Below, piece after piece: positions 10,018-54,318 of a stretch of DNA of 64,000 bases (position 1 is its first letter; every line of letters starts with the position of its first letter). Below the pieces are notes generated by a model. That model worked only from the letters and a program-made list of their open reading frames with translations. It was not told the origin of the DNA and searched no databases. Position numbers and translations under genes: made by a program. The DNA comes from a virus, in the IMG/VR virus record IMGVR_UViG_3300037423_000584. One strand, given 5' to 3'.

Positions 10018-10048
10018 GGCAATAATTCTTCTAAAGGTAGATACTATT

Positions 10049-15943: not shown

Positions 15944-15951
15944 TTAATATA

Positions 15952-16060
15952 TGGCGTTGGGTAGGCCGGCGTCGATAACCGGCTAAATCTTCGGATGACC
16001 TTGGCAGGACTACCCTCGGAAAAGGCTCATTACCATCCGGGTTCGAATCCCGAACGCCAT
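15952..16060 (+). ncRNA. tRNA-like RNA (acceptor plus T arm, non-canonical middle)
   Basis: TGGCGTT/AACGCCA with CGGG-TTCGAAT-CCCG; GCCGG/CCGGC and ATC-TTCG-GAT arms. Confidence 0.6.
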
Positions 16061-19315: not shown

Positions 19316-19394
19316 GCCCCGGTATCTCAACCGCCTTCTAAGCGGTCGTTAACCGAGTAATTGGAGTATGCAGGTTCGAGTCCTGTCCGGGGCG
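19316..19394 (+). tRNA. atypical tRNA, anticodon TCT (Arg), lacking a normal D arm
   Basis: GCCCCGG/CCGGGGC; ACCGC-CTTCTAA-GCGGT; GCAGG-TTCGAGT-CCTGT; about 7 nt between acceptor and anticodon stems. Confidence 0.65.
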
Positions 19395-25049: not shown

Positions 25050-25195
25050 GCCCCAATAGTTTAACAGGACAGCGAGAAACACCTACCAAGCCCACGGCTT
25101 TCTGTGAAAGCAGAAGGTACGCCGCCGTTAGTGGATCTTGCTAAAAACCGTTGCCTCTCAGGCAAATGATCTACGTTCGAATCGTGGTTGGGGTA
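25050..25195 (+). ncRNA. tRNA-Glu(CTC)-like RNA with D-loop insertion, copy 1
   Basis: GCCCCAA/TTGGGGT; TTGC-CTCTCAG-GCAA; CTACG-TTCGAAT-CGTGG; insert class CCACGG/TACGCC. Confidence 0.85.
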
Positions 25196-25197
25196 TT

Positions 25198-25359
25198 ATG
25201 CAAGAATATGAATATATGTCGATTGAAGCTCTAGAAGACCAAAGAGCTATAACAGATGAGAGACTTAATAATCTAGCCAAGAACGGATGGGTTGTTTTAT
25301 CTGTTTCTTGGATTGGTGCGTATATGGTGGCGGCTTTGTTACAGAGAATTAAACAATGA
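25198..25359 (+). CDS. DUF4177-like small protein
   Basis: EYEY...LNNLAKNGWVVLS; ATG 2 nt after RNA copy 1. Confidence 0.55.
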   Translation: MQEYEYMSIEALEDQRAITDERLNNLAKNGWVVLSVSWIGAYMVAALLQRIKQ

Positions 25360-25557
25360 GTGACACTAATATTAGAATTCTTTCTGAAAACGACACAAAG
25401 GATGGATTGATTTTAGTCTCATTCAATTCAGCTTTGTTTGATTGGCCTAGAAACTATTATTACGATTATAATAGATATACCTTTTATACAAAGCGTTCTT
25501 GTCCGGATATATCTGGTGCAACAGAATGTGCCGAATATCTTCTAAATAACTAAAATT

Positions 25558-25702
25558 GCCCCAGTAGTTTAATAGGCGAAGCGATACTATCTAAGTCACT
25601 AGGCTTCTTGAGAAATCAGGAAGTTATAGCACATTTAGTGTTGTCTTCTTAAAACGTTTCGCTCTCAGCGAAAATATCTTGGTTCGACTCCAAGCTGGGG
25701 TA
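25558..25702 (+). ncRNA. tRNA-Glu(CTC)-like RNA with D-loop insertion, copy 2
   Basis: GCCCCAG/CTGGGGT; TTTCG-CTCTCAG-CGAAA; insert class CACTAG/ATAGCA. Confidence 0.85.
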
Positions 25703-25898
25703 CTATGACAGCAGCAGAACTAGCACGGAAGCTAATGGAACATCCACATGTACAAGTTCACATGGAAGGAGAACTTAATGCCAATGTAGACCATTTTATA
25801 GATGCAATTGGCAAAATAGTCGTTGCTGAAATGAATATGAAAGAATATGGGGTTAAAAAAGGCGATCTCATAATCTTAAATAAAACTAGATGAAATTT

Positions 25899-26041
25899 GC
25901 CCCGCTAGTTCAATAGGCGAGAGAAATATCCTCTAAGTCACTAGGTTTCATGGTGAGTGAAACCATAGCACATTGGATGTCGCTCTCATAGAACAGATTC
26001 CTCTCAGGAATAAAATGTACGTTCGAATCGTACGCGGGGTA
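25899..26041 (+). ncRNA. tRNA-Glu(CTC)-like RNA with D-loop insertion, copy 3
   Basis: GCCCCGC/GCGGGGT; ATTC-CTCTCAG-GAAT; GTACG/CGTAC. Confidence 0.85.
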
Positions 26042-26051
26042 CTTTAATATT

Positions 26052-26291
26052 ATGGCTACATATCATTTAAGAAAAAAGGAAGATGAAGATTTCAGGATAG
26101 TTAGATACGAAGATGGCAGAATGCATTTCAATCCATGCTATCTTAATAAAAATGGTCTTTTTCAAAGAATAATAGAGAGACCGTATGATACTTATAACTC
26201 TAGGAGATATGCGATAGCTTTCTTTAAGAAGTGTTTGCCAAACGAAGTTCTTCGAGATGAAACTGCCAGAAAGACAAAGTTAATTAAGTAA
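26052..26291 (+). CDS. NSxRYA-family small protein
   Basis: YLNKNG...YNSRRYAIAFFKK. Confidence 0.8.
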   Translation: MATYHLRKKEDEDFRIVRYEDGRMHFNPCYLNKNGLFQRIIERPYDTYNSRRYAIAFFKKCLPNEVLRDETARKTKLIK

Positions 26292-26296
26292 TACAC

Positions 26297-26441
26297 GCCC
26301 TCGTGGTCTAATAGGCGGATGTTAAATTTACAATCACTAGTTTCCTGCGGAAACGTTGGAAAGATAGCATTGTTTATTTAATTATCCATATGACAGCCTT
26401 CTCTCAGAAGGAAAATGCACGTTCGAATCGTGTCGAGGGTA
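26297..26441 (+). ncRNA. tRNA-Glu(CTC)-like RNA with D-loop insertion, copy 4
   Basis: GCCCTCG/CGAGGGT; CCTT-CTCTCAG-AAGG. Confidence 0.85.
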
Positions 26442-26629
26442 TTAGTATTTTTTATAGGATTTGTAGTCAAATCTATGAGATATAAACAACTATTCGAAAC
26501 AACGGATGAAATTAAAGCAAATGAAAAAGTTCTCAATGGATGGGTTCTTATAGAAACTAAGAATGACTCTGGACGATTTAATAATAATCGTCCTATATAT
26601 GTATTAGGGATTCCTAAATAGTTCGATAC

Positions 26630-26714
26630 GCCGGTGTGGCGGAACGGCAGACGCTACGGACTTAAAATCCGTTGGGAGATAACTCCCGTAAGGGTTCGAT
26701 TCCCTTCTCCGGCA
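26630..26714 (+). tRNA. tRNA-Leu(TAA)
   Basis: Type II cloverleaf, ACGGA-CTTAAAA-TCCGT, variable arm GGGAG/CTCCC. Confidence 0.92.
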
Positions 26715-27327
26715 CTAATTTACTTGGATTAATTAAATGACACCTTATCAAAAACGTCTTTGCTTATTGGAATAATTGGCTGGTTATTTTACGCTGGTTT
26801 TTCATATCTAATTATTAGTAAAGGATATATAGAAGATAATGAATGGACTGTTGGTAAAAGAAATAGATGGATCACTATTTGTTTATTAACTGGTCCGTTT
26901 ATGTTTGCTTTTTTATTTTGTATTTGGATTTTCTTTAGTGATAAACCTGCTAAGTGGTAAATTATGATCAAGCATCATCCCTATATCTTTTTTGAACTTG
27001 TTTGAATTCTTTGTTGGATTGTTTCTTGGTTTATATATCGTTATTATGAACGAACAGATCATCCAAACAGATGGACTATTAGACACAGAAATATGTCTCT
27101 TGTGATTTGTTTTTGTATGTCGCCGATTGCAGCATTTTTGCTAACTATATTAGCAATGTTTAATTGTGCTGATAAATCATTTGAATATTGCAGTAAAAAA
27201 ATAAATCAACTTAGATCTTGGATTAAATCAGATACTAGAATTTCTGACTGGTAGAATTATACTGAAAATGATGAATAGGACTATTTCACAAGCAAAAACT
27301 TGGTAGATCTTGGATTCATTTTCTGGA

Positions 27328-27452
27328 AACAGATGACGCCAAACTAGGAATGGCAGGCGGCGAGATCGTCATGGCAATGATCGATGGATCAACGAAGCTC
27401 ATAAACCGCTAGACTAGTCCACCTATGTAGGTTCGATCCCTACCATCTGTTC
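27328..27452 (+). ncRNA. tRNA-like RNA with structured insertion in place of the anticodon loop
   Basis: AACAGATG/CATCTGTT; D arm GCCA/TGGC; GCGG/CCGC; GTAGG-TTCGATC-CCTAC. Confidence 0.65.
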
Positions 27453-28043
27453 TTTTATGGGAGGTATATGAGCGAAGAGTATACTGTGTTTTCTAACATA
27501 GGTATGATCAAAGGTTACTTTAATTTAACCGATGATGAATATCATAGGTTCAAAGAACTTATGAAATCTATGCACTTTATAATTCGGAAAGGACGTATAG
27601 AAAAATCGATTCGTATTCCTATTAATCGTCGTGTTGCAATTAGGGGTGCAGTTAAGCCAAATTCAGAACAATTGACATGATTATATTCCGAAAAGGTCAA
27701 AATCATAGTGTTTTGATTAATCTTTTTGTTGTTTGGATTATTGTTCATTATTGGTTTCCTAAATCGTACTGGAAACATTTTAGACTAACAAAGAAAGATC
27801 CCTTTTGGAATAGTTCTCTATATTTAGGACCTTTTGAATTTTACTGGGATCGACGACGACAATTTGATCAAGAACGAATCAGACTATTGTATCGATTTGC
27901 CATTATTGATTGGCATTTCGTAGTATGGAAAGAATACTGGCAGTTTAACGAAATCATTAAAGCGGAGGTGATTTTCTCAACAGCTAAATTGTTAGATTCG
28001 ATTAAGATTTAATACCTACCCTGATGACAAAGGATGGTTTGTT

Positions 28044-28679
28044 ATGGCCCAAGGTAGATTGAATAGAGACGGTCGTGATAGTTATCGTAACTTAGATAGA
28101 CCATTTCGTGCTCCGCGTGAAATCCTTGATAAAAATGGCGATTTTGTCAAGTTTCACGATATGGACGTAATGCGTCTTGGCAATCATGATAGGTCAATGA
28201 ATACCACTGGCTCATTTGGTGTTAAAAGCACAATGGGCGTCGGACGACTAAGTATAGTTGTCCGAAAAGGGGCACCTGGAAAATCAAGAGCCGGACGTAA
28301 AAAGAAAAACGGCTCAAAACTGATATCTCGTAGATTTACGATTGACTATGATAAGCATAGTTTTCCTCAGTTAAGAAACTTGAGGAATGATCTTATTGTA
28401 GTTAAAACGATGTCAGAAGGTCTTCCTGAACACCAAGGAAGAAAGCTGTTTACTTTTGAAATGCAAGATGTCTTAAGAACGTTAGATAATTACATAGAAA
28501 CAACGTTCGATGCTGCTCTTATTGAACAAATACACATCTCTGATCAACATAGAATTGCATCTACTAAAGGCATGATGCGTAGCGGGAAGGTAAGAGCAAA
28601 AGGTATTGAGGATCTTGGAAATAGAATTTACCGTGCTTTGTCTATAATGAACATAAAACACGGAAAAATGAACACATAA
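28044..28679 (+). CDS. basic hypothetical protein, paralog of 15065-15574
   Basis: Shared NTTG/APGK/KKKNGS motifs; AAAGGATGG RBS. Confidence 0.75.
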   Translation: MAQGRLNRDGRDSYRNLDRPFRAPREILDKNGDFVKFHDMDVMRLGNHDRSMNTTGSFGVKSTMGVGRLSIVVRKGAPGKSRAGRKKKNGSKLISRRFTIDYDKHSFPQLRNLRNDLIVVKTMSEGLPEHQGRKLFTFEMQDVLRTLDNYIETTFDAALIEQIHISDQHRIASTKGMMRSGKVRAKGIEDLGNRIYRALSIMNIKHGKMNT

Positions 28680-29806
28680 CATAACAATCTGCGTTGTGTC
28701 ATGGAATCCCATATATCGAAAGATTATGGGATTTCTTTATGAAAAGAAATATAGAAAACATTATCATAATATTGATAATTGTGTTTCTTACTATTATAAT
28801 TCCATTGTTATGTCTTTATGTAATTTGGGCTTAATATTACGTTTGCTATATTAAAGATTATAGTTAACGTAATACTCAAACAATAAGAAAATACAGTTCT
28901 ATCAAGAAGACTTTCAAAATTAAATTAGTCTAAATAACCAAATCTTATGTTTATAAATCTTCTTGACTAGACTGTATTTATCTCTTTTATACTTAATACT
29001 TACAAAATACTTAAGTAATATCGTATAAATTCAGAGAACTTTTTACTAGAAAATAAATAAATCTATGTGGGAATTCTTTAAATTCATTAGTATACTTTGT
29101 TTGACAATGATTGTAGTGTTTACTACTATTTGGTTTATCTCTAATCTTGCTAACTTATTATGAATAAAAGAATTAGAAAAACTATTATTAGAATTGTAAA
29201 TGCTTTTGAAGAAGGCGATTACAATCTTGTAGATTCTTTGTCCAAAAAACTTGACTATTTAAAAGAAAGCCATTTTGGACGCATTATGGACAAAATGATC
29301 GATGGCCAAAATTAATTACAAAGTAAATGATTTCGTTACTATTTTGAAATACAAAAACGATCCTATCAACAAAGAAGGAAGAATAACTGTTGTATACGAA
29401 AGTGGTCATGTTCATGTCAGCAATTTAAATATGCCATTTTGTGGATCTGTTAATAGAATTTTTAGACCAGATGAAATTGCACCTGTTACAAATATTGACT
29501 AATTTATATTGTTTAGATGGAGACGATTCTAGTTTAACAGAAGACGAAAAAGAAAAGATTAAACAATCTCTAGGTCCAAACTGGAGAACTATTCTGTTGG
29601 AAAAGAAAGTTAAACAGACTCAAGTTCAAGATGAACAAATTCCAGCTATTTGCGAGTCGTCAGAATTATCGTAGGCTATGCGTGGGAGGTGGGATAACCT
29701 CCACCATAGGTTTCATATAGTTTAAACGCTATATGAAATCTTAAAGGATGGAAGGGGATTAGGGGTGAAACACCATTCGTTGTGGCTTAGCCACAGGAGT
29801 TACACC

Positions 29807-30298
29807 ATGGCTGAACAAGCAGCCAATATTCAGAGCTTCGCTGATGATGCAATGCATCGGCTGGCTACGTATCTCAAGGTTACTGATCGCTCGCAGGAAT
29901 GGATCGATCAGAATATCGAATGCGTTGCAGCTTTGCTTGACATTACCAAGCACGACGCACTGGAAGGCATGAAGAAATTCATGACCTTGGAAAATCGTGA
30001 GAATCAACAGGGTCAAGTCCGTCAGGAAGCTAGACAGACTGCCACTGTTGGTTCTGGTGGAGGCGGTGGAGAACAGGATGCTCGCGAAGAGCTTGATAAA
30101 GCAATTCGTGAGTCTCAGGGTGGCGGTGGTGGTGGACAAGGAGGCCAAGGCGGTGGCGGCGGAAGGCCGCAGAATAGTCCGTCCGCTAATCAGGCCAGAA
30201 GCCAAGCCTTACAAGGCAACCAGAACGCTGCTGGTCCACATTCCGGCGGCGGTGGGCGTGGCCAAGGAGGCGGTGGAGGCGGTGGAGGCCAAGCGTAA
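29807..30298 (+). CDS. protein with Gly/Gln-rich disordered C-terminus
   Basis: AGGAG RBS; GGGGGQGGQGGGGGR repeats. Confidence 0.7.
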   Translation: MAEQAANIQSFADDAMHRLATYLKVTDRSQEWIDQNIECVAALLDITKHDALEGMKKFMTLENRENQQGQVRQEARQTATVGSGGGGGEQDAREELDKAIRESQGGGGGGQGGQGGGGGRPQNSPSANQARSQALQGNQNAAGPHSGGGGRGQGGGGGGGGQA

Positions 30299-30354
30299 TT
30301 TTTAACAAATGAGGTAATCACAAGTGTCCCCGTAGGAAACTGCGGGGATATTTT

Positions 30355-41104: not shown

Positions 41105-41314
41105 ATGACTACGTACTATAAATTAAGAAATGAGAGATCTGGATATAGAATAATAAAATATCCGCAAGGTGAACCTCACTTATATCTTCTTAAGAACGGA
41201 ACTTGGTATCGTTGGTATAATAATAGAATTCTTTTTAATTCAAGAAGATATGCGATTCAAATTTTCAAAAAATATTATCCAAACGATAGGTTAATAGATG
41301 AATCCACTTCCTGA
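41105..41314 (+). CDS. NSxRYA-family small protein
   Basis: YLLKNGTW...FNSRRYAIQIFKKYYP. Confidence 0.8.
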   Translation: MTTYYKLRNERSGYRIIKYPQGEPHLYLLKNGTWYRWYNNRILFNSRRYAIQIFKKYYPNDRLIDESTS

Positions 41315-41513
41315 TACTGAATATGAAATAGCTTCTGGTTTTCGCGGATATAGAATAATAAAATGGTTCTGGGATAACAATAATATATATCGTTATAATT
41401 ATCTTGATAAAAATGGCAACTGGACCAGAGAACATTGCCATTATAATTCAAAGAGATATGCTATAAGTATATTTAAAAAATATCTTCCAAAAACAAAATT
41501 CTTTATAAAATAA
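41298..41513 (+). CDS. NSxRYA-family small protein
   Basis: YLDKNGNW...YNSKRYAISIFKKYLP. Confidence 0.8.
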   Translation: MNPLPDTEYEIASGFRGYRIIKWFWDNNNIYRYNYLDKNGNWTREHCHYNSKRYAISIFKKYLPKTKFFIK

Positions 41514-41517
41514 CAAC

Positions 41518-41661
41518 GCCCCAGTGGTCTAATAGGCGAGGAGTGAATTTGAGAAGTCCCCAGTTTGCTGTGCAAACAGTAGATATGGCACCTCATATTT
41601 ACGAATCATATGACAGTGCTCTCTCAGAGCAAAGATCCAAGTTCGAATCTTGGCTGGGGTA
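41518..41661 (+). ncRNA. tRNA-Glu(CTC)-like RNA with D-loop insertion, copy 8
   Basis: GCCCCAG/CTGGGGT; TGCT-CTCTCAG-AGCA; CCAAG/CTTGG. Confidence 0.85.
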
Positions 41662-41671
41662 TTTTTGATAT

Positions 41672-41929
41672 ATGAAATATTTTATAGATGCTACATGTCC
41701 AGAAGATATAGTTGTCATGAGACAACCAGAAAATCGTGAATTGTATCCAGACTCAGTTTGGCTTAATCACGATGGCAAATGGGAAGATAGTCCATACTAT
41801 GAACGCAACAGAACAGAATATAATAAATTTCTTAAAAGAACTACATTTAATTCTGTAAGATGGGCTCTTTCTGTTTTATATAAAGCAGAAGGTAAAAAGA
41901 TCAAAAAAGAAATAATTACAGATTTTTAA
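41672..41929 (+). CDS. NSxRYA-family small protein
   Basis: WLNHDGKW...FNSVRWALSVLYK. Confidence 0.8.
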   Translation: MKYFIDATCPEDIVVMRQPENRELYPDSVWLNHDGKWEDSPYYERNRTEYNKFLKRTTFNSVRWALSVLYKAEGKKIKKEIITDF

Positions 41930-41934
41930 TTATT

Positions 41935-42081
41935 GCCCCGATGGTCTAATAGGCGACAATGAATTAAGAATATCCCCAGTTTCCTAGCGAAAACGCTAAG
42001 AAATATGGCATATCTTGATTCTGAGTCAGATGACGACAATCTCTCAGATTGTAGATCTTCGTTCGAGTCGAAGTCGGGGTA
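41935..42081 (+). ncRNA. tRNA-Glu(CTC)-like RNA with D-loop insertion, copy 9
   Basis: GCCCCGA/TCGGGGT; ACAAT-CTCTCAG-ATTGT; CTTCG/CGAAG. Confidence 0.85.
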
Positions 42082-42085
42082 TTTT

Positions 42086-42328
42086 ATGACAAAAGAATTA
42101 GTGATATTTAATATTCCCGGAGAACCATCTTATAGAATACAAGCACTTGGATATGATGGTTTTCCCGGTGAAGACGCAAGAGTTGGCAAAAATAAAAAAC
42201 TTCATAATTTAACTGTTTATACTGTTGGTACTTATAATACAGAATTAGATTTTAATTCTCGTCGTTATGCGATACAAGTCGCAAAAGAATTTGATCCATC
42301 TGCTAAAATAACAACTACAAAATACTAA
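42086..42328 (+). CDS. NSxRYA-family small protein
   Basis: MTKELVIF...FNSRRYAIQVAK. Confidence 0.8.
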   Translation: MTKELVIFNIPGEPSYRIQALGYDGFPGEDARVGKNKKLHNLTVYTVGTYNTELDFNSRRYAIQVAKEFDPSAKITTTKY

Positions 42329-42549
42329 TGATAAAGGTTTCAAGATCACATTGGAATAATAAACTTTTCTATGTAATGAATGTAGAAAATAATAATTTCC
42401 TAAGAACAGATGGAACTTGGCGACATCTTGAGCGTGGCTATCTAAGGATAGAACAAAATCCGGAGTTCTATTTCAATTCAAGAAGATGGGCAATTTCTGT
42501 TCTAAAGAAACTAATTCCAGATGTTAAATTTAGAGATTTTGCAAAATGA
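42328..42549 (+). CDS. NSxRYA-family small protein
   Basis: FLRTDGTW...FNSRRWAISVLKKLIP. Confidence 0.8.
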   Translation: MIKVSRSHWNNKLFYVMNVENNNFLRTDGTWRHLERGYLRIEQNPEFYFNSRRWAISVLKKLIPDVKFRDFAK

Positions 42550-42779
42550 AAGAATGTTGGATATCAGACTGGCACAGTGGCATGGTATGGATAAACGAAG
42601 GAAGATTTCCTGATTCTCTAAGATCACTAACTATTTATGGAACATTAGAACCTTGGGTAGCAGGAAACAAAAAGTTTACATTTTCATCCAGAAGATATGC
42701 AATTCAAGTTCTAAGAAAATATTTTCCAAATTGTAAAATAACTAGAGATATGCAAAAAGAAAAAGAAAGACGTAGATAA
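42546..42779 (+). CDS. NSxRYA-family small protein
   Basis: FSSRRYAIQVLRKYFP. Confidence 0.75.
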   Translation: MKECWISDWHSGMVWINEGRFPDSLRSLTIYGTLEPWVAGNKKFTFSSRRYAIQVLRKYFPNCKITRDMQKEKERRR

Positions 42780-42798
42780 AAGTTTGTAATTATTTTAC

Positions 42799-42945
42799 GC
42801 CGCTTTGGTCTAATAGGAGGTGAGGATATGGGACTAATCCCCAGCTTTCTTGCGAAAGCGAGACAGTATGGCATTGCCTAATATTCAAACCAAATGATAT
42901 CTTTCTCTCAGAAAGAAGATAAAGGTTCGAATCCTTTAAGCGGTA
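42799..42945 (+). ncRNA. tRNA-Glu(CTC)-like RNA with D-loop insertion, copy 10
   Basis: GCCGCTT/AAGCGGT; TCTTT-CTCTCAG-AAAGA; AAAGG/CCTTT. Confidence 0.85.
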
Positions 42946-42953
42946 TTTAGATT

Positions 42954-43175
42954 ATGAGATATATTATATTTAATGGCACATTAGGATGGTTAGTTTGGAC
43001 AGACACTGCTCCAAATGAAAAATATTTACATAAAAGTGGAGATATTAGAGAATGGGATCGTACTAATTGGAAAGATCATTGTGTAAATTCACGAAGACAT
43101 GCAATACAATTAATAAAGAAAATTGATCCAAAAGCTAAAATAATATCATATAGATATAGATATCCTGAAAGATAA
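42954..43175 (+). CDS. NSxRYA-family small protein
   Basis: YLHKSG...VNSRRHAIQLIKKIDP. Confidence 0.8.
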   Translation: MRYIIFNGTLGWLVWTDTAPNEKYLHKSGDIREWDRTNWKDHCVNSRRHAIQLIKKIDPKAKIISYRYRYPER

Positions 43176-43180
43176 AACAC

Positions 43181-43299
43181 GCCCCAGTAGTTTAACAGGG
43201 TAACTAGAGTTATTATACGCCACGGGCCGAATTAACTTAAGTTACAAAGAACAATCAACTCTCAGTTGAAAAGTATTCGTTCGAATCGGATCTGGGGTA
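43181..43299 (+). ncRNA. tRNA-Glu(CTC)-like RNA with short D-loop insertion, copy 11
   Basis: GCCCCAG/CTGGGGT; TCAA-CTCTCAG-TTGA; insert stem GTAACT...AGTTAC. Confidence 0.8.
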
Positions 43300-43309
43300 C
43301 TTAAACTAT

Positions 43310-43528
43310 ATGACTGAATACATATTATGGAAATCAAATGACTACAGAGGTTACTTCTTTGTAACAAAATATGATGAATATGGATATTGTAAGGCATATT
43401 TATCAAAATCTGTTTCGTGGACTCATCAATTAGATAGAAATATAACTTATTTTAATTCAGAAAGATACGCTATTCAAATATTAAAATTATTGGTTCCTAA
43501 CGCAAAGTATACTAAGTATAAGTATTAA
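43310..43528 (+). CDS. NSxRYA-family small protein
   Basis: YLSKSVSW...FNSERYAIQILK. Confidence 0.8.
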   Translation: MTEYILWKSNDYRGYFFVTKYDEYGYCKAYLSKSVSWTHQLDRNITYFNSERYAIQILKLLVPNAKYTKYKY

Positions 43529-43564
43529 AATCCTCGCATGTGTAATAAGGGAAAACATAAAACC

Positions 43565-44371
43565 TTATTGCATAGATGCGAGATGTAAACATTTTATCCT
43601 TTTGTCTATTATTGACTTTATTTGATCATAAAATTCAAGTATTTTATATTGTTTACCACAATATCTATGAGATATATCTATTATATGTAATTCGATATTG
43701 TTTTCATTACATAATATTTGTTTTCTTTTATCAGATTCAGTTGTTCTATTAAAACTTTTTTCTCCGTAAATTGGTTTATAATGACAAATTCCATTAATTT
43801 CGAAAGCAATATCTAACTTTGGTATTAATATATCAAGTTCAAGTCCAGATAGAATATTTCTATTATTGAATAGAATATTTAAATCTGGATAATTTTTTCT
43901 TAATAGTTTTTCTATACAAATTTCTGCTTTTGATCTTCCTAAATCATTTTTTTGACAGTAGTTGTGATAACACGGTCCAGAACAAAAATTTCTTTCATTA
44001 TTATTGCTTGGTTTTCTGAAAATATCCTTATTGCAATAAGCACAATTTGATTTTATTTTTTCTGGTCCTCTAGGATCGTGTCCATGTCTTTCTTTTAAGG
44101 TATAAACAGAACAGCATTTCCTAGAACAAAAGTGTCTAGGATATTCTTTAACTTGTCCAGTAAGTTTATTAAATACTTTATCACATCTTAAGCATTTTAC
44201 TTCTGTATATGTTTTGTAATCTTTTAATTGTTGCCTTCTGAAATAAGTTGTTCTACAAGATCTTGTACAGAAATTAGATGTTGTTCTTTTAATTTCCGAA
44301 TTAAATTTTAGAAATTCATTATCACAATATAAACACTTAACTAAGGTACTATTATTTAAATTTTTATGCAT
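43565..44371 (-). CDS. putative homing endonuclease: three CxxC/FCSxxC zinc repeats plus Vsr/DUF559-like PD-(D/E)XK domain
   Basis: SKAE...ELDILIP..DIAFEINGICHY...D.RK. Confidence 0.8.
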   Translation of the reverse strand: MHKNLNNSTLVKCLYCDNEFLKFNSEIKRTTSNFCTRSCRTTYFRRQQLKDYKTYTEVKCLRCDKVFNKLTGQVKEYPRHFCSRKCCSVYTLKERHGHDPRGPEKIKSNCAYCNKDIFRKPSNNNERNFCSGPCYHNYCQKNDLGRSKAEICIEKLLRKNYPDLNILFNNRNILSGLELDILIPKLDIAFEINGICHYKPIYGEKSFNRTTESDKRKQILCNENNIELHIIDISHRYCGKQYKILEFYDQIKSIIDKRIKCLHLASMQ

Positions 44372-45004
44372 AAAACTATAAATGAAAGTTATGGAATAAT
44401 TAATAAAAATGTTGGATATCGATATTTATTATCGAGTCCAGACAATATTGATGTTAATAAAAAATATCCTCTTATTGTCTATCTATCATCAGCGGGATGT
44501 AGAGGAAGTATAGAAGCCGTAAAACAAGAATCTGTTTGTTCTTGGTTTAAAAACCATATTCCTTTTTATGTTCTTGCACCCGTTTGTCCTCATAACGAAA
44601 TTTATGATCCTGACTCTGTAAAATATTTGATTGATAAAACAGTTGCAGAAAATCCTATTGATATAAATCGTTTATATGTCAGTGGATACAGTATGGGGTC
44701 AAGAGGCTGTCATAATTGTCTTTCTGAGTATCCAGATCTATTTGCAGCTTCAGTTATAGTCTGTGGAGTGTCGTCATATCTAGTTGCTGCTAAATATGCT
44801 CATGTTCCAATACATCTATTTCACGGTGATAAAGACGAAGTTGTTAGTATAAACGAATCCTTAAAAATATTTCATGCTTTAAGAGAGCATGGTGGTAATC
44901 CTAAGTTCCAAGTTCTTAAAGGATTTGGACATGATATTTACGAAGAAGTTTATGGTTCCACCGATACGTATCGGTGGTTATTGTCTCATTCTAAGAAAGG
45001 GTAA
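44366..45004 (+). CDS. alpha/beta-hydrolase (esterase/peptidase)
   Basis: KYPLIVYL, RLYVSGYSMG, HGDKDEVV, GH triad pattern. Confidence 0.85.
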   Translation: MHKTINESYGIINKNVGYRYLLSSPDNIDVNKKYPLIVYLSSAGCRGSIEAVKQESVCSWFKNHIPFYVLAPVCPHNEIYDPDSVKYLIDKTVAENPIDINRLYVSGYSMGSRGCHNCLSEYPDLFAASVIVCGVSSYLVAAKYAHVPIHLFHGDKDEVVSINESLKIFHALREHGGNPKFQVLKGFGHDIYEEVYGSTDTYRWLLSHSKKG

Positions 45005-45006
45005 TT

Positions 45007-45153
45007 ATGCCTGGTCCGTCTGGTCAAGTTAATGCTCGTCATGCTCGTCATACCGCTGGCAAGAAGGGCTTTGGTGCCGAACGTCATCTTATGAATCTTT
45101 CTCCTTCTACGGAACGTGGGAAGCGTCGTAGGGCGAAGAAGGGTAAGAAGTAA
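45007..45153 (+). CDS. 48-aa very basic peptide (not in ORF track)
   Basis: MPGPSGQVNARHARH...ERGKRRRAKKGKK; CGT/AAG-rich codon usage. Confidence 0.55.
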   Translation: MPGPSGQVNARHARHTAGKKGFGAERHLMNLSPSTERGKRRRAKKGKK

Positions 45154-45351
45154 TAAATATATGGAAGCAATACTGTTTAAAACAGTTGTATCGTTTTTTG
45201 TTTGTGTTTTTATTGGATTCTTTGTAGCATTAGCTACTTCTGGTAATGACGAAGCTTTAGCTAAATGGTATACCCACAAATACTTTCCATGTATTTGTAT
45301 TATTTTTGGGTCTACTATTGTCGTAGAAATAATGCTATTTTAATATAGCTC

Positions 45352-45498
45352 GCCCGCATGGTCTAATAGGCGAATATAATATTACCCAATCCCCAGCTTT
45401 TGTGCAAAAAGCATAAGAGCATGGCATTGGGTTTTATTATATTCATATGACAGTCACCTCTCAGGTGACAGATGAAAGTTCGACTCTTTCTGCGGGTA
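45352..45498 (+). ncRNA. tRNA-Glu(CTC)-like RNA with D-loop insertion, copy 12
   Basis: GCCCGCA/TGCGGGT; GTCAC-CTCTCAG-GTGAC; GAAAG/CTTTC. Confidence 0.85.
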
Positions 45499-45505
45499 TT
45501 TTGTT

Positions 45506-45751
45506 ATGTTAATACGTTTGTATCAAAATCCAAATCCAAATAGTAATACATTTATATGCTATATCAAGAATAATTCAGAAAATTGGCCTTGGGGTAAAAC
45601 ATATTATCTGAAAAATAATGGTGTGTGGCATAAAAATAGATGGCCCGGATGGGACGATAAATGTCATAATATAATATATAATTCTAGAAGATACGCTATA
45701 CAAACAATCAAAAAATATTTTCCAGATGCAAGAATCAAAGAAATTAAATAA
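45506..45751 (+). CDS. NSxRYA-family small protein
   Basis: YLKNNGVW...YNSRRYAIQTIKKYFP. Confidence 0.8.
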   Translation: MLIRLYQNPNPNSNTFICYIKNNSENWPWGKTYYLKNNGVWHKNRWPGWDDKCHNIIYNSRRYAIQTIKKYFPDARIKEIK

Positions 45752-45932
45752 TTTATTCAAAATGCTATCTTATTCATCAGATGGTATCATGAATATTTAT
45801 ATCAGAGATAAAAAGTATAGTTATATAAATGTTCCAAGAAATCTTTATCAAAGAATAGATTTTCTTATATCTAAAAACAATAACTCTTTAGTATCTAAAT
45901 TATTAAAAAATGTTCAAATATATAATAATTAA
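45726..45932 (+). CDS. KTSC-like small protein
   Basis: YSYINVPRNLY motif. Confidence 0.4.
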   Translation: MQESKKLNNLFKMLSYSSDGIMNIYIRDKKYSYINVPRNLYQRIDFLISKNNNSLVSKLLKNVQIYNN

Positions 45933-46143
45933 ATCTTCGATGGTAAGAGGATCTTTTTATATAAAAAGAACTTCAGACAATGATAATAAAAGATGGTTTC
46001 TAAATCCTAAAAAAGATCTTTGGGAAGATCGTATTGATTATATAAACACTCGACATTTGTATTATAATTCATACAGATATGCAGTACAAAGACTTAAGAA
46101 ATTGATACCTGATATAAAGTTTATCTATCAGGATTTTTCATAA
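45910..46143 (+). CDS. NSxRYA-family small protein
   Basis: YNSYRYAVQRLKKLIP. Confidence 0.8.
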   Translation: MFKYIIIKSSMVRGSFYIKRTSDNDNKRWFLNPKKDLWEDRIDYINTRHLYYNSYRYAVQRLKKLIPDIKFIYQDFS

Positions 46144-46144
46144 T

Positions 46145-46390
46145 ATGTATAAATACGAAATAGTCAAATCTAAACATCATAAGAAAAATTGGTTCTTTAT
46201 AAGAAGAAGACCAACGAAAAGAAATACTTGGATATGGGGATATTTATCCGATTCTTTTGAACGTTGGCATTGGGTATATCGCGAATGGGATTCCGAATAT
46301 CATTATAATTCCTTTAGACGAGCAGTACAGCGTCTTAAAGAAATTGTTCCAAATGCTAAGTATAGATTTATAGATCAAACAAAGTTATAA
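46145..46390 (+). CDS. NSxRYA-family small protein
   Basis: YNSFRRAVQRLKEIVP. Confidence 0.8.
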   Translation: MYKYEIVKSKHHKKNWFFIRRRPTKRNTWIWGYLSDSFERWHWVYREWDSEYHYNSFRRAVQRLKEIVPNAKYRFIDQTKL

Positions 46391-46614
46391 TGATATATAA
46401 AGTAATGAAATTTGGTAGAATGGGATGGTACATTACATCTATTATTCCAATAAATAAAGAGTATCCAAATAGAGATTATTATCTTCACAAAGATGGCAGA
46501 TGGATATATGGAACTATGAATGAAAATAAAGAATATTCTGGATATTTTAATACCAGAAGATATGCCATTCAAGTATTAAAGAAATATTACCCAGATGCAA
46601 AAGTGGCAAAATGA
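46390..46614 (+). CDS. NSxRYA-family small protein
   Basis: YLHKDGRW...FNTRRYAIQVLKKYYP. Confidence 0.8.
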   Translation: MIYKVMKFGRMGWYITSIIPINKEYPNRDYYLHKDGRWIYGTMNENKEYSGYFNTRRYAIQVLKKYYPDAKVAK

Positions 46615-46844
46615 AATGGTTAGTAGCTAATCAATATGCAAATCATTGGTACGTTTGTAGAATAGAACGTCTCGACTTTAGACATAAAACAATATATCTT
46701 TCTAAAACAGGAAAAGAAATTATTGGTCCATATAATAATTTTGGCCAACTTTACTTTAATTCCCGAAGATTTGCAATACAAATAGTTAAACAAGTAGACA
46801 AAAATGCTAAATTGGTTAAAAACGCAATCGAGCTATTTAATTAG
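46611..46844 (+). CDS. NSxRYA-family small protein
   Basis: YLSKTG...FNSRRFAIQIVK. Confidence 0.8.
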   Translation: MKWLVANQYANHWYVCRIERLDFRHKTIYLSKTGKEIIGPYNNFGQLYFNSRRFAIQIVKQVDKNAKLVKNAIELFN

Positions 46845-47097
46845 TTGCTTTTTCATTAAAAAAAATAGATATAAGTATCAGATTGTTGTTAAGACAAACG
46901 GTTATCGTTATATCCAACGTTTTGATAGAGAATTTGAACTATTTTCTTATCTTACAAAGAAAGGTAAATGGGACATAAGAAGACCATATAGTGTATTCGA
47001 AGATAATGATAGACTATATAATAGTAGACGATTTGCGATTTCACAATTGAAATCAAAAATAGGCGATAAAGAATTTCAAGAAATAAAAGGTTTGTAA
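46804..47097 (+). CDS. NSxRYA-family small protein (start uncertain)
   Basis: YLTKKGKW...YNSRRFAISQLK. Confidence 0.75.
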   Translation: MLNWLKTQSSYLISCFFIKKNRYKYQIVVKTNGYRYIQRFDREFELFSYLTKKGKWDIRRPYSVFEDNDRLYNSRRFAISQLKSKIGDKEFQEIKGL

Positions 47098-47103
47098 TTA
47101 ATC

Positions 47104-47249
47104 GCCCCATTAGTTTAACAGGACAGTTTGTTGATTTTACCAAGTCCACGGCTTTTTGCGAAAGCAAAAAGTACGCCACCGTTTGATCGACTTACTAAAA
47201 ACCTCTTTCTCTCAGAAAGATGATTTACGTTCGAATCGTAAATGGGGTA
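47104..47249 (+). ncRNA. tRNA-Glu(CTC)-like RNA with D-loop insertion, copy 13
   Basis: GCCCCAT/ATGGGGT; TCTTT-CTCTCAG-AAAGA; insert class CCACGG/TACGCC like copy 1. Confidence 0.85.
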
Positions 47250-47253
47250 TTAT

Positions 47254-47481
47254 ATGTTTCACTATGCTTTGGCGATACAAAATCAGGCTTTAAACACGTT
47301 TAGAATAGTACGTTTTGGAGGTGGATTTGGAGCACATCGTCTTAATAAAGATGGAAAATTTGTTCCAATAGGAGAAAAATATGAAAAATATAATTCTAGA
47401 AGGCATGCTATACAAATGTTTAAAAAATTCGTTCCAAACGAAAAACTATTTGATAATAGTACCGGCAAAGTAATTAAATAG
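47254..47481 (+). CDS. NSxRYA-family small protein
   Basis: LNKDGKF...YNSRRHAIQMFKKFVP. Confidence 0.8.
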   Translation: MFHYALAIQNQALNTFRIVRFGGGFGAHRLNKDGKFVPIGEKYEKYNSRRHAIQMFKKFVPNEKLFDNSTGKVIK

Positions 47482-47486
47482 AATAT

Positions 47487-47691
47487 GCCCCACTAGTTTA
47501 ACAGGAAGTACATGTAACTTGTGGACCAAAGTTCCCAGTCTAGATATTACAATTCTCTTATGTATCGACAGTATACATTTGTGATCGCAAGATCTCAGAG
47601 GATTTGTTTTTGATGATATGGCACTCCATGTTCGGTACGAAAACAGTTGTCTCTCAGATAAAAGATCGTCGTTCGAATCGACGGTGGGGTA
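47487..47691 (+). ncRNA. tRNA-Glu(CTC)-like RNA with extra-long D-loop insertion, copy 14
   Basis: GCCCCAC/GTGGGGT; TTGT-CTCTCAG-ATAA; CGTCG/CGACG; TCCCAG...ATGGCA core enclosing about 75 nt. Confidence 0.8.
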
Positions 47692-47698
47692 CTTTATT

Positions 47699-48285
47699 AT
47701 GATTCAAAATAATATAGCCAAAATAACTCTCAATGCTTTAATTAGAATCCTTAGCAATTTATCTACTATAGACAAAAAACTAAATATAAAACCGGGAGAA
47801 TATTCTCCTAATATTCTTATAATGGAAATAGATGGGGGTCCAAATGATGGAAGACTTGTTTGGTCAGCAAAAGATCAACAAGCTTATTACGTAACAGACC
47901 AATGGTTTAATATAATTACCAAGAAGAAAGAAGAAACATTAGATACGCAAAATGCTAATTCTATTGTTTTAAATATATGAAAATAACATTAAAGGCTCTT
48001 CATAAAATGCTACTTGCAGTATTTCCATTGAAGCACTTTAGTTTTGATGGAAGTCCACAGGGAGAACTATATTTTTGGGCAGATGGAACAGTTGAATCTG
48101 GCCAAGGCTTTTTGTGTTATTCGATAGAAACAGATGAAATAACTCTTATATCTAATACATGGAAACCAAAAATAGAAGAATTTCTTAGATCTATTGGAAA
48201 TAAAACCAAAGAACAACAAGAATTATTTTCTGACGCCGATTTCGCAGAGTATCAAAAACACAATTGTTTAGGAACAGATATATGA
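47699..48285 (+). other. two paralogous ORFs (47699-47980, 47977-48285); third paralog 49743-50069
   Basis: Shared KITLxAxxxxL N-terminus and L.[WY]....Q/E.....W C-terminus. Confidence 0.55.
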
Positions 48286-49022
48286 AGAAAAAGCGGCACG
48301 ACAAGATTTGTTTACTTTGTAAAAAATCTAGAGCCATTTATGCTATTCAAAATCTATTCTTGCCAAATGGCAAAGTTCCTAAGAGGAAAAGAACACAAAT
48401 AAGAACTAGACCGATTATTTGTGATTGTTGTGCTAGTCCTGATAAGTTTGCCATTCCTGTTATTATAACTAAAAGTCCTGAACAGTGTAAGGATTTGATT
48501 TGTAAGTATGCCGAAAATTCCAAAGATAGAAAAGACTATTCACCGATTCTTCTTTATCAAAATCCCAAATCAATAGAGCTTGCTAATAAAGATCCTCTAC
48601 CTATTTGGGTAATGTCGAGACAAATGGTGGGTACTATGCAAATAGATGCTCCTCATATTGTTATTTCGATTACCAATCCGGGATCTAATCCTGCATTTAT
48701 CAATCAAAATGGATATCTTTTAGATATACATCGTGTTTCCTTTGATGATGCAGATAAATTCCATAAAGACGGTAAGACTTATAATATAATCACAGAGAAA
48801 CAGGCAAAGGATATCTGGCACTTTGTCAAGAAAAATAAGTGGCGAACAAGTGTAATTGTTTGTCATTGTGAAGCAGGACGAAGCAGAAGTGCGGGTGTTG
48901 CCGCCGCTTTGTCTAAGATAATTAATGGAACCGACGAAGAATATTTTAAGAAATATACTCCTAATAGTAAAGCTTATGCCGCTATATTAAAGGTGGTTTA
49001 TGGCGATCATGCCAAACAATAA
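48282..49022 (+). CDS. protein-tyrosine/dual-specificity phosphatase-like protein
   Basis: VISIT...FDD...VCHCEAGRSRSAGVA (CX5R). Confidence 0.8.
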   Translation: MKKKRHDKICLLCKKSRAIYAIQNLFLPNGKVPKRKRTQIRTRPIICDCCASPDKFAIPVIITKSPEQCKDLICKYAENSKDRKDYSPILLYQNPKSIELANKDPLPIWVMSRQMVGTMQIDAPHIVISITNPGSNPAFINQNGYLLDIHRVSFDDADKFHKDGKTYNIITEKQAKDIWHFVKKNKWRTSVIVCHCEAGRSRSAGVAAALSKIINGTDEEYFKKYTPNSKAYAAILKVVYGDHAKQ

Positions 49023-49180
49023 TAAAGTATTCTGGCTTATTCTACTGATCATTTCTTTTTGTATGTTTTGGTTCTCACTAAGATACGGAGTAGATAAAGC
49101 AAATCCTATTAATTTGACTATAGTTTTACTAATAACAATTTACTCATCTGTAATGTTGTCATTAGATAAATAAACTAAAA

Positions 49181-49314
49181 TCCCAGCGTAGTTTAAATAC
49201 GAGCATCTGATCTAAACACCAAGGAGTGAAATCTTTGGTGTATTTTTGTTTGTCTTGTGGGAAAACATCGCTCGCTTGGGCGACATTAAGAGTTCGAATC
49301 TCTTCGTCTGGGAC
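49181..49314 (+). ncRNA. degenerate tRNA-like RNA with D-loop insertion
   Basis: TCCCAG/CTGGGA; GTTT/AAAC D stem; TCGCT/GGCGA arm; AAGAG-TTCGAAT-CTCTT. Confidence 0.6.
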
Positions 49315-50074
49315 TTTTATGAAAGGCAATATGCATAGCACAAATGGAAATCTTGCTAGCCTAGTAAGGACCTCTGTTATAGAAGATCATGGTATGAAAT
49401 TATATATCTGGGATAGTATACCTGGATATGAATCTTTCATGGTATTTGCTTCTTCCACAGAAGAAGCCATACAAAAATGCGAAGAATCTATGATGCCATT
49501 TGAAATACTAAAGCATCTTAAAGATTTTCCACCGTGTAGAATTGTAGAAAATAAACCTACCATTATTGCTATTAGATCCAATATAATTATATGAGTACAA
49601 CAGAAATAAATGAAGAACGTCTTTATCCTTCCATAGTTAAATATCCTAAAGATCCTCCGTCTGCATCAGAACTAGAACGATTGGAAAAAGAAGAGAAAGA
49701 AAAATCGGAGATAAAGAAGTGACCCTTTTGATAGGCATTGAAATGATTAAAATTACCTTGTCTGCCGTTGTTAGAATCCTTGCGAAACAGGGATTTCAAT
49801 ATATTATAGAAACAGTAGATGACACGGAACATGACACTGTATGTTTTGTGACTTCTGATGGTTATCCAGAAACAGTCGGTCCTTTTGTTTACGATAATAC
49901 TCAAGAAGGTCTTCAACAAGCATTACACAAGCGTGCTCATAAAAAGACTCCTTTGTTGTATTATAACATGGAAACACAAATGATAACTTCTTGTTGTCAA
50001 GAATGGCTTGATCTTTTTAAGGACGAAGCTAGAGCTTGTAAAGATAATTCTATAGCTATTGTTCAATAACTAAC

Positions 50075-50237
50075 GCCCCAGTAGTTTAATAGGGAATTTT
50101 AGAAACCGGTCATACGTTGAAAACTAGTAGATTCCTAGAATCGAAAGTAAGTACATACGCTCATTCCGTGAAGTATAAAGTTCAAAGAACGTTATCCTCT
50201 CAGGATCATGGTCTTGGTTCGAATCCAAGTTGGGGTA
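50075..50237 (+). ncRNA. tRNA-Glu(CTC)-like RNA with divergent D-loop insertion, copy 15
   Basis: GCCCCAG/TTGGGGT; ATC-CTCTCAG-GAT; CTTGG-TTCGAAT-CCAAG. Confidence 0.75.
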
Positions 50238-50243
50238 TTTAAT

Positions 50244-50507
50244 ATGATACAAATTATAAAAGATACTTGGTTTGAGAACAAATGGTTTATCTTTAATTAT
50301 AAAAATCGAGATGGCAATTATTTCTTAACAAAAAAATTAAAATATCAACGTCTTGAGACAACGGATTATAATGCCAAGAAAGAAAAATCTATTATATATT
50401 TTAATTCCTTAAGAGAAGCCATAAGCATTCTTAAAAAAGTACATCCTAAAATAGAACAATCAGAATATTCTATAAATAAGCGAGATAATAATGGGCAAAA
50501 GTATTAA
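50244..50507 (+). CDS. NSxRYA-family small protein
   Basis: FLTKKL...FNSLREAISILKKVHP. Confidence 0.75.
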   Translation: MIQIIKDTWFENKWFIFNYKNRDGNYFLTKKLKYQRLETTDYNAKKEKSIIYFNSLREAISILKKVHPKIEQSEYSINKRDNNGQKY

Positions 50508-50962
50508 AAAACAATTTAGCCAAACTCATGCAGGATTGAGTCCGTATTGTGTTTGGATCTTAGTAGGTATTATTCTTGGAACTAAGATTCCAGAGATCAA
50601 AGATGAATATAAAAAGAAACAGGTTTCAATTTCTTTAAGAGGTGATACTCATGTTTTTCCAGTAATGACAAATGCTGTCAAATCATTGGAAAAATATGGT
50701 TTTATACAACTTAATACTAGACTAGAATGCTATAAATTAACCTCGAAAGGTTTTAATGTAGCACATGATAAACTTAAAGAAGCCGGATTTAAGTTAGGAC
50801 TTTCTTCCACTATTTAATGGGTTATTATTTGTTGTCAATTAGGCATGACGTTGCGATTGCCAAGTTATATTATTCATTTAGTATAGCGTTTTAGATACAA
50901 ATAATACTTTAAAAACTCAGTTCCGATACTATACAACCCTTATAGTTGCAAAGTCGGAACAT

Positions 50963-51034
50963 ACCCATGTAGCTCAATGGTAGAGCGTTCCGCTGTTAAC
51001 GGAATGGTTGGTGGTTCGAATCCATCCGTGGGTG
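50963..51034 (+). tRNA. tRNA-Asn(GTT)
   Basis: ACCCATG/CGTGGGT; TTCCG-CTGTTAA-CGGAA; TTCGAAT. Confidence 0.9.
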
Positions 51035-51041
51035 TTAAATT

Positions 51042-51296
51042 ATGAGATTTCATATAGTAAGATCAAAAATATTAGTCGATAAAGAATATTATTTAATAGC
51101 ATTATGCTATGATAAACCTCCGCATATATTCCGTGGAAAATGGTTATCAAAAAATGGTAAATTCACATTTGGAAATGGCTGTATGCATCCAAATCAAATG
51201 CATGAATTCCATTTTAATTCTATAAGATATGCGATTCAGACTGTTAAAAAATATTATCCAGAACTTAAAAAATCAAATGTATTTATTAAAAAATGA
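51042..51296 (+). CDS. NSxRYA-family small protein
   Basis: WLSKNGKF...FNSIRYAIQTVKKYYP. Confidence 0.8.
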   Translation: MRFHIVRSKILVDKEYYLIALCYDKPPHIFRGKWLSKNGKFTFGNGCMHPNQMHEFHFNSIRYAIQTVKKYYPELKKSNVFIKK

Positions 51297-51559
51297 TATT
51301 TAAAATAATAGAAGGATTTGGACCAAGAAGAGGAACATATTGTATCGCAGTATGTAAAGGTAAAAATCGTATTGCACACTGCTGGATAACAAAAAATTTA
51401 AAAACAGAAGTTCCAAAATATGACTTAATAGGAGAATCATATGAATATTATATGAAAATATTTTATTATAACTCTGTTAGATATGCAATACAAACGTTGA
51501 AAAAAGTTTTTCCAAATACAAAAAGATCCGAAATAGAATTTCCAACAAGGAGAAATTGA
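51293..51559 (+). CDS. NSxRYA-family small protein
   Basis: WITKNL...YNSVRYAIQTLKKVFP. Confidence 0.8.
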   Translation: MIFKIIEGFGPRRGTYCIAVCKGKNRIAHCWITKNLKTEVPKYDLIGESYEYYMKIFYYNSVRYAIQTLKKVFPNTKRSEIEFPTRRN

Positions 51560-54316: not shown

Positions 54317-54318
54317 TT

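Follow-up and report, generated by a model that had tools for sequence, protein, structure and literature searches.

The DNA considered here is a window of 64,000 nucleotides (nt) from a virus, corresponding to bases 86,986-150,985 of the 172,542-bp phage record IMGVR_UViG_3300037423_000584, which has 35% G+C and a completeness rating of 100%. Its central feature is an array of RNAs that resemble tRNA-Glu and carry a long hairpin in the D-loop, interspersed with genes for small proteins. Fifteen such elements of 119-205 nt had been proposed in a first-pass annotation of the sequence, and all were located where it had placed them, on the + strand. They are RNA 1 (25050-25195, 146 nt, with a CACGG-type insert in its D-loop hairpin), RNA 2 (25558-25702, 145 nt), RNA 3 (25899-26041, 143 nt, with a small-protein family gene 10 nt 3'), RNA 4 (26297-26441, 145 nt, without an ATG in the next 30 nt), RNA 5 (39883-40030, 148 nt), RNA 6 (40309-40443, 135 nt), RNA 7 (40964-41099, 136 nt), RNA 8 (41518-41661, 144 nt), RNA 9 (41935-42081, 147 nt), RNA 10 (42799-42945, 147 nt), RNA 11 (43181-43299, 119 nt, the shortest insert), RNA 12 (45352-45498, 147 nt), RNA 13 (47104-47249, 146 nt, again with a CACGG-type insert), RNA 14 (47487-47691, 205 nt, the longest insert) and RNA 15 (50075-50237, 163 nt). 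On its + strand, the entire genome contains 15 copies of the motif CTCTCAG, each of them the anticodon loop of an element. A degenerate sixteenth scaffold (49182-49313, +) scores 36.6 bits with covariance model R1; its D stem and D-loop hairpin are as in the others, its acceptor stem is bulged and its loop is not that of tRNA-Glu. Immediately 5' of RNA 1, about 550 nt (24500-25045) hold no clear gene and are tiled by long hairpins, and within the array the opposite strand carries a 268-residue Cys-rich open reading frame (43565-44371, -), a candidate homing endonuclease by resemblance.

The elements share one layout. A 7-bp acceptor stem and a 4-bp D stem are followed by A14 A15 Y16 A17 G18 G19, an insertion of 48-134 nt and A21; the anticodon stem has 5 bp, the variable region has 4 nt with U48 as its last base, and the arm behind it carries TTCGA. 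Invariant in all 15 copies are G1.U72, C2-G71, C3-G70, U8, U11-A24, A14, A15/U48, A17, G18G19, A21, the loop CUCUCAG, G53-C61, TTCGA and A73, in agreement with the acceptor end, anticodon loop and T loop first described. The 4-nt variable region had been ascribed to most copies; the feature is real and the count was too low, as it is found in 15/15. The stem said to be inserted after G18G19 is likewise present in every copy, at about position 20. Stems that differ in sequence nevertheless stay paired, as had also been proposed: pairing in the acceptor, D, anticodon and T stems is 99, 88, 91 and 100% within copies and 73, 79, 45 and 56% across copies. In 12 aligned copies 94.4% of the cells are paired and two-sided changes occur at 22 of 31 pairs, a level reached by none of 500 shuffles, and in slid controls the paired cells drop to 37-46%. 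Kinship can inflate such a test, as the tool itself warns; the copies are, however, dispersed and merely 44-78% identical to one another. This strong covariation demonstrates that the RNA fold is under selection.

The insert forms a long irregular hairpin. Those of 13 copies fold with z-scores of -2.3 to -10.3 against mononucleotide shuffles, and those of the two longest copies do not fold above such shuffles. An internal motif recurs, CYAG opposite YAURGC with a bulged A beside a G.U pair, and it covaries through CCA/UGG and CUA/UAG exchanges. Compared by eye with known motifs, it matched neither the 11-nt tetraloop receptor, the S8 site, the signal recognition particle (SRP) loop or the Ro site of Y RNA, nor the cores of the hairpin, twister and pistol ribozymes. 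ARAGORN and Rfam at gathering thresholds, run on the whole window, did not call the elements; with lax filters the tRNA family (RF00005) alone responded and two copies exceeded its gathering score, so that no described Rfam family was found beyond these weak tRNA matches. Such arrays are probably under-counted, because standard tRNA finders miss these RNAs.

Other unusual tRNA-like folds lie in the same window. At 30355-30463 another D-loop-expanded tRNA scaffold has a 5-nt anticodon loop and an insert loop complementary to the leader motif AAGGTAGGTAG present at 5523, 5903, 15051 and 23377; the core of that motif, AGGTAGGT, is found in 17 places. This scaffold is possibly an antisense RNA displayed on a tRNA. 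Three further deviant folds with T arms (15951-16061, 19316-19394 and about 27330-27455) comprise one with enlarged arms, one seemingly without a D arm (Rfam 35.7 bits) and a Leu(UAG)-like fold whose D region is extended. Two tandem tRNAs of uncertain identity at 32053-32224, assigned as Ile(UAU), have the loop CUUAUAA and variable arms that are long.

The RNA family was also found in other phage contigs. In covariance model searches a second phage, the 177,898-bp contig L152, gave at least 12 copies within 20 kb; L150 gave three, L158 two, and L141, L142 and L144 one apiece. In an alignment of 28 copies from four contigs, fitted to the covariance model, 95.3% of the cells are paired and U11-A24, C3-G70 and G53-C61 are conserved in 28/28. 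Copies in L152 begin with ATCC or GTCC; their insert motif is present in variant forms, and their anticodon loops are mostly of 5-6 nt (CUUCAA, CCUCAA, CAUCAA, UUUCCG), which by their length should not decode normally. Genes for an RNA ligase (PF09414) and a Thg1-family protein (L152:3760-4785 and 10230-11036) lie among these copies. The hairpin is an accessory module, since it is missing from some of the copies in L141, L144, L150 and L158. In the surroundings of 20 other viral GluRS genes, model R1 returned ordinary tRNAs only; in 151 Planctomycetota genomes, with 21 candidates scored per genome, it had no match at E 1e-12. Scans with DNA patterns gave one chance match in viral_contigs and 51 matches in metagenomes (one ordinary tRNA-Glu and the remainder without the fold), and looser patterns gave 149 viral matches with no D-loop-extended copy among them.

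The origin of the RNAs was assessed against tRNA-Glu of the presumed host phylum. For the capsid protein of the phage, IMG/VR contains 446 relatives, and GenBank phages contain none. The closest named cellular relatives of the glutamyl-tRNA synthetase (GluRS) that it encodes are from Planctomycetota, mostly Phycisphaerae, and the host is therefore probably a member of that phylum. Among 29 Planctomycetota tRNA-Glu genes, collected with a search pattern that demanded a short variable region, the commonest ends are those of the elements (G1.U72 in 16/29 and A73 in 23/29), and U11-A24 and the 4-nt variable region are as in the elements. On account of these matches, sequence comparison establishes that the RNAs descend from a Planctomycetota-type tRNA-Glu, which bears out the earlier description of them as tRNA-Glu scaffolds. 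Position 38 is G in the array loop CUCUCAG and in 0/29 of the host genes; an ordinary bacterial-type tRNA-Glu(CUC) with the same loop does exist (L126).

Bacterial GluRS recognizes U35, C36, A37, U11-A24, the U13-G22:A46 triple and the absence of nucleotide 47 (PMC9976931). Retention of such elements had been claimed for all copies. This holds in 15/15 for U35/C36/A37, U11-A24 and the missing nucleotide 47, but U13 is present in only 14/15. Copies in relatives mostly, not always, keep U35/C36/A37. A small-protein homologue pointed to a related 185-kb phage that encodes GluRS, and by this route a GluRS gene, P0098, was found at genome positions 153200-154669 (L007:3200-4669), 2.2 kb past the end of the window, with catalytic and anticodon-binding domains (PF00749 and PF19269). 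P0098 aligns at full length to the solved GluRS structure 8jpv (E 2.8e-84 over residues 41-479) and has HLGS and KLSKR motifs of the HIGH/KMSKS type. It also retains what we take, from the Thermus enzyme, to be the two arginines that bind glutamate and a third that recognizes C36. The gene thus encodes an intact glutamyl-tRNA synthetase. About 19 close homologues (41-58% identity) outscore the named cellular enzymes and are phage-like wherever the contig was seen; a quick tree joins P0098 to the GluRS of the second array phage with support 0.90 and leaves the enzyme of the 185-kb phage, which is more host-like, outside this pair. From the identity elements conserved in the array, the RNAs are probably bound and charged by GluRS. 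Located 3' of P0098 is an IMP dehydrogenase-like gene (L007:5937-7457) with an insertion resembling a mini-intein (C...HN/S ends). The same gene order recurs in L271 and in L155, where thirteen ordinary tRNAs, many with a start codon 2-12 nt 3', occupy positions 5229-11852.

Glutamate is a weak ligand of EF-Tu, and tRNA-Glu offsets this with a tight T-stem. Using published pair values (PMC3239215), the mean EF-Tu binding contribution of the T-stem (ddG), a prediction from E. coli/Thermus rules, was +0.82 kcal/mol for the 15 copies, +0.92 for 20 copies from relatives and -0.62 for host tRNA-Glu, which corresponds to predicted binding of the array RNAs about tenfold weaker than that of host tRNA-Glu. 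Pair 51-63 is A-U, U-A or U.G in 15/15 copies and G-C or C-G in 29/29 host genes. AT bias fails to explain this, because the adjacent pair 52-62 is of G-C type in 13/15 copies; pair 49-65 is so in 9/15. Ordinary phage tRNA-Glu genes retain G51-C63, and the weak T-stem is found in the insert-less copies of relatives too. Two features of decoding tRNA-Glu are thus lacking from the array RNAs, namely canonical size with a canonical D-loop and a tight, G51-C63-type T-stem (0/15 vs 29/29). Non-proteogenic (NP) tRNA-Gly of staphylococci, which feeds the Fem transferases, likewise has A51-U63 (PMC7826273). These sequence features make it quite probable that the RNAs are excluded from translation, and taken as a whole they look like GluRS substrates held off the ribosome.

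The RNAs could instead be working GAG decoders whose hairpin is tolerated like a long variable arm or excised as a D-loop intron. All 15 copies do retain U33, an anticodon loop of 7 nt and a complete cloverleaf; deletion of the hairpin would leave a D-loop of normal size, as in the insert-less versions of relatives, and the ordinary tRNA-Glu(CUC) in L126 shares their anticodon loop. Codon demand, however, does not explain 15 such genes, as had been argued at the outset: the phage uses GAA 1809 times and GAG 403 times, and many genomes of the host phylum have their own CUC isoacceptor. The weak T-stem, insert-less copies included, and the 5-6-nt loops of the second phage are also difficult to reconcile with decoding. 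As for splicing, the junctions vary, no bulge-helix-bulge is evident by inspection, and no match to RtcB or to a PF09414 ligase was found in the genome, no search for a splicing endonuclease having been made. Service as decoders is highly improbable on these grounds.

The small proteins interspersed with the RNAs form a family with 27 genes in the genome and about 70 more members in databases. The 22 members first listed are all in the window and five more lie outside it. The first gene is at 26052-26291 and one without an element 5' of it at 37893-38159. A block of 10 spans RNAs 5-11 (40039-43528; starts at 40039, 40448, 41105, 41298, 41672, 42086, 42328, 42546, 42954 and 43310), a block of seven occupies 45506-47481 (starts at 45506, 45910, 46145, 46390, 46611, 46804 and 47254), and three genes lie within 50244-51559 (starts at 50244, 51042 and 51293), that at 51042 being preceded by an ordinary tRNA-Asn; all are on the + strand. 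The five further genes (L008; genome 160693-161880) are in tandem with no tRNA-like element. The proteins are basic (isoelectric point mostly 9-10), with a fold of three strands, a helix and a strand. Searches of Pfam and PHROG assigned them to no family and to no toxin family, Atlas leads were all below 0.9, and in fold comparisons all matches (UPF0339/YegP-like, eL38) were under Z 5.

Eleven elements are followed directly by a family gene, as had been observed, with a spacing of 4-10 nt. It had been suggested that the two act together, as a ribonucleoprotein or a pair resembling type III toxin-antitoxins; each small basic protein would then bind its neighbouring RNA, for example at the insert motif. 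Family genes do sit next to elements more often than expected (10/11 vs 10/22, Fisher p 0.02), an arrangement seen again in other contigs, and the family size climbs with the number of RNAs (27/15, 17/12, 9/2 and 4/0 by contig); small, basic proteins of this three-strand-plus-helix fold are also what such a role would suit. Similarity among the RNAs does not, however, track similarity among the adjacent proteins (Mantel rho -0.03, p 0.52 for the whole RNA; p 0.41 for the insert), 16 of the 27 genes have no element 5', and some members are preceded by an ordinary gene for tRNA-Asn, -Leu or -Ile. Tandem co-duplication of RNA-plus-gene units accounts for both the adjacency and the joint expansion. 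The small genes would then be co-duplicated passengers, and a cognate RNA-protein system is highly unlikely; binding that is family-wide and not cognate may nevertheless occur. A type III toxin-antitoxin was rejected in particular, since the RNA copies are diverged and dispersed and the proteins match no toxin family.

The same spacing raises the question of punctuation in cis, in which cuts by RNase P and RNase Z would release mRNAs with short leaders, or GluRS binding would gate a start codon 2-10 nt 3'. Most elements begin a few nt past a stop codon, 14 of the 15 end 2-10 nt before an ATG, the base at -1 is a pyrimidine in 15/15, and promoter-like sites are about as frequent as in shuffles (70 vs 76), as would fit one long transcript. 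Ordinary tRNA genes of a related phage, however, are equally near to ATGs (2-12 nt), so that the spacing is a habit of the clade; a gene directly 3' is absent for one of the 15 copies and for tandem copies of the second phage; and processing alone requires no invariant anticodon loop, U11-A24 or conserved insert motif. We therefore consider such a switch distinctly unlikely. Sequestration of a Shine-Dalgarno sequence by the 3' GGGGU was set aside, as most genes of the region have no Shine-Dalgarno-like leader.

Downstream of the array, on the + strand, is a block of genes for GNAT-fold paralogues and peptidases: paralogue 1 (53369-54316, 315 residues, a candidate aminoacyl transferase), paralogue 2 (54304-55647, with a Cys-rich C-terminal region), an M28/M20-type metallopeptidase (55651-56616; PF04389 above cut-off, peptidase T E 2.4e-4), paralogue 3 (56620-57927, 435 residues), a second M28-like peptidase (57940-58980; phrog_4191 E 2.6e-21), paralogue 4 (59926-60879, 317 residues) and paralogue 5 (60881-61804, 307 residues), which lies 4.4 kb 5' of the GluRS gene. 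The structure of paralogue 3 was modelled with a predicted local distance difference test (pLDDT) score of 87. Structural matches to this model were mostly GNAT-fold proteins, with a modest best Z of 5.9, and included the tRNA-dependent L-PGS, A-PGS, MprF and FemX (Z 4.8-5.3, root-mean-square deviation 3.5-4.3, 104-115 aligned residues). Based on this model, the five paralogues likely have the GNAT fold. A relationship to PcfJ was discarded: there was no PF14284 match at E up to 1, and the sole lead was an Atlas score of 0.83 for 44% of the cluster. The block and GluRS share a contig in four other cases. A GNAT paralogue is recorded on the 177,898-bp contig, whose sister-assembly locus has the whole block followed by GluRS, and another (P0245) is on a third RNA-bearing contig, matched to L158 by its length. 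Both phages with large arrays thus have GluRS and the GNAT/peptidase block, the second by linkage and not by direct reading.

By analogy with the staphylococcal system, our tentative interpretation is that the RNAs may be non-proteogenic Glu-tRNA donors for the GNAT proteins. Processing of the RNase P/Z type and CCA addition by the host would mature the 15 RNAs, and these would be charged by GluRS, most likely the divergent enzyme of the phage itself. The weak T-stem for EF-Tu, G38 or a 5-6-nt anticodon loop, and the 50-130-nt hairpin would bar the RNAs from translation, and the charged RNAs would constitute a dedicated reserve of activated glutamate on which the adjacent GNAT-fold proteins draw, the fifteen diverged copies giving dosage without recombination. 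Judging from the modelled fold, the GNAT proteins could conceivably pass glutamate to an acceptor (a protein, a cell-envelope polymer, a lipid or a small molecule), a step to which we give rather less than even credence. The weakest step is the last, in which the M28 peptidases might trim or reverse the product, as suggested by fold and synteny. It is more doubtful still that these sequences represent a complete system of ribosome-independent glutamylation in a clade of Planctomycetota phages, with a GluRS, an amplified set of non-decoding, D-loop-extended tRNAs, a new class of single-domain, tRNA-dependent GNAT transferases docking on the hairpin, and peptidases by which the modification of a target in the host or the virion is edited or reversed.

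Several observations weigh against the donor interpretation. G22 of the GluRS triple is mostly lost (3/15 copies; A46 is kept in 13/15), and several copies in relatives lack U35/C36 (loops CUUACG and UGUGCC). Acetyl-CoA-dependent GNAT proteins tie with or outrank the tRNA-dependent ones as matches to the model of paralogue 3, which is a single GNAT domain where Fem ligases have two. The related 185-kb phage has GluRS, the GNAT block and 13 ordinary tRNAs, and the 20 kb of it that were seen contain no such RNA. Only two phages, related to each other, are known to have large arrays, and shared ancestry may explain the co-occurrence. In 19 capsid-related control records, model R1 found ordinary tRNAs only, GluRS and the block were absent, and one marginal match to the small-protein family occurred; this joint absence favours a link between the RNAs and the block, yet three of the records are at least 90% complete and 16 fall below this. 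Fifteen copies exceed the obvious need of a catalytic donor cycle, and the weak T-stem would suit a decoy equally well.

As a decoy or sponge, abundant tRNA-Glu mimics would soak up host GluRS or a defence enzyme directed at tRNA-Glu; the weak T-stem would just keep them harmless, and the GNAT block would be unrelated. If GluRS were the target, host glutamylation would be redirected while the phage GluRS takes over; if defence, the enzyme would be one that attacks tRNA-Glu, Glu-tRNA or tRNA-bound GluRS. The high copy number and diverged stems fit a stoichiometric role, the identity elements together with a phage GluRS fit a conflict over tRNA-Glu, and the scaffold at 30355-30463, which displays the complement of the leader motif, places tRNA scaffolds as carriers within the repertoire of this phage. 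A decoy for an anticodon nuclease should, however, copy the loop of the host, where G38 occurs in 0/29 genes, and the 5-6-nt loops of the relatives are varied; moreover, no target defence system was identified. The decoy interpretation has its early steps in common with the donor one and parts from it at the final step. On balance a decoy role is the main alternative but rather unlikely, and the donor interpretation is preferred.

If the RNAs are donors, the closest parallel is staphylococcal tRNA-Gly NP1-NP3 with the Fem transferases, which shares extra isoacceptors, A51-U63 and a T-stem weak for EF-Tu (PMC7826273). Those tRNAs keep synthetase recognition and feed GNAT-fold transferases, and the array RNAs would likewise. 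The array differs in that it concerns glutamate, is phage-encoded with its own synthetase, has 12-15 diverged copies, keeps G18G19 and the T loop, and adds the large D-loop hairpin; the T loop of NP tRNA-Gly has TGC or TGT instead of TTC, whereas TTCGA is found in 15/15 here. The array would thus work like the staphylococcal system, yet not be a member of it. With Planctomycetota tRNA-Glu(CUC) (RF00005) the RNAs share G1.U72/A73, the GCCCC start, U11-A24, the 4-nt variable region, the CUC anticodon and the tertiary core, and they depart from it in the 48-134-nt hairpin after G19, G38, the A/U pair 51-63 and the frequent loss of G22. In other phage tRNA clusters, too, small genes lie within a few nt of the tRNA genes, and other large phages have GluRS genes alongside ordinary tRNAs; unlike the array, those clusters hold tRNAs of normal size with varied anticodons, and their tRNA-Glu has G51-C63. 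Archaeal tRNA-Glu genes can contain D-loop introns inserted, as here, at about position 20-21; the array differs from these in its bacterial host, the absence of a visible bulge-helix-bulge, the conserved motif within the insert and the lack of either ligase family. Type III toxin-antitoxin arrays of the ToxIN kind also place repeated structured RNAs beside small protein genes, but there the repeats are near-identical pseudoknots upstream of one nuclease gene, whereas the array RNAs are tRNA folds of 44-78% identity.

A literature search, in which subscription papers were thinly covered, gave no description of these RNAs or of the GluRS/GNAT block, and with the Rfam result this is in keeping with the initial impression that the arrangement belongs to no described family. 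Non-proteogenic tRNAs for peptidoglycan synthesis had previously been detected in two staphylococci only (PMC7826273). A phage-encoded set with its own synthetase, if correctly interpreted, would show aminoacyl-tRNA put to a new use in infection; an unannotated GNAT-fold family would acquire a function, and there would be a testable reason why some large phages carry a synthetase. Were the RNAs decoys, a 15-copy array of tRNA-Glu mimics would mark a hitherto unrecognized conflict between phage and host over glutamyl-tRNA. The natural grafting of a 50-130-nt domain into the D-loop of a possibly chargeable tRNA bears on identity rules and scaffold design.

Elsewhere in the window, G+C climbs to 42-50% at 4001-8700, above the genome-wide value. 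Genes recognized outside the regions described above encode a protein with a cREC receiver domain (549-1862), an ATP-dependent DNA ligase (20002-21135) and a nicotinamide phosphoribosyltransferase (62410-63924).

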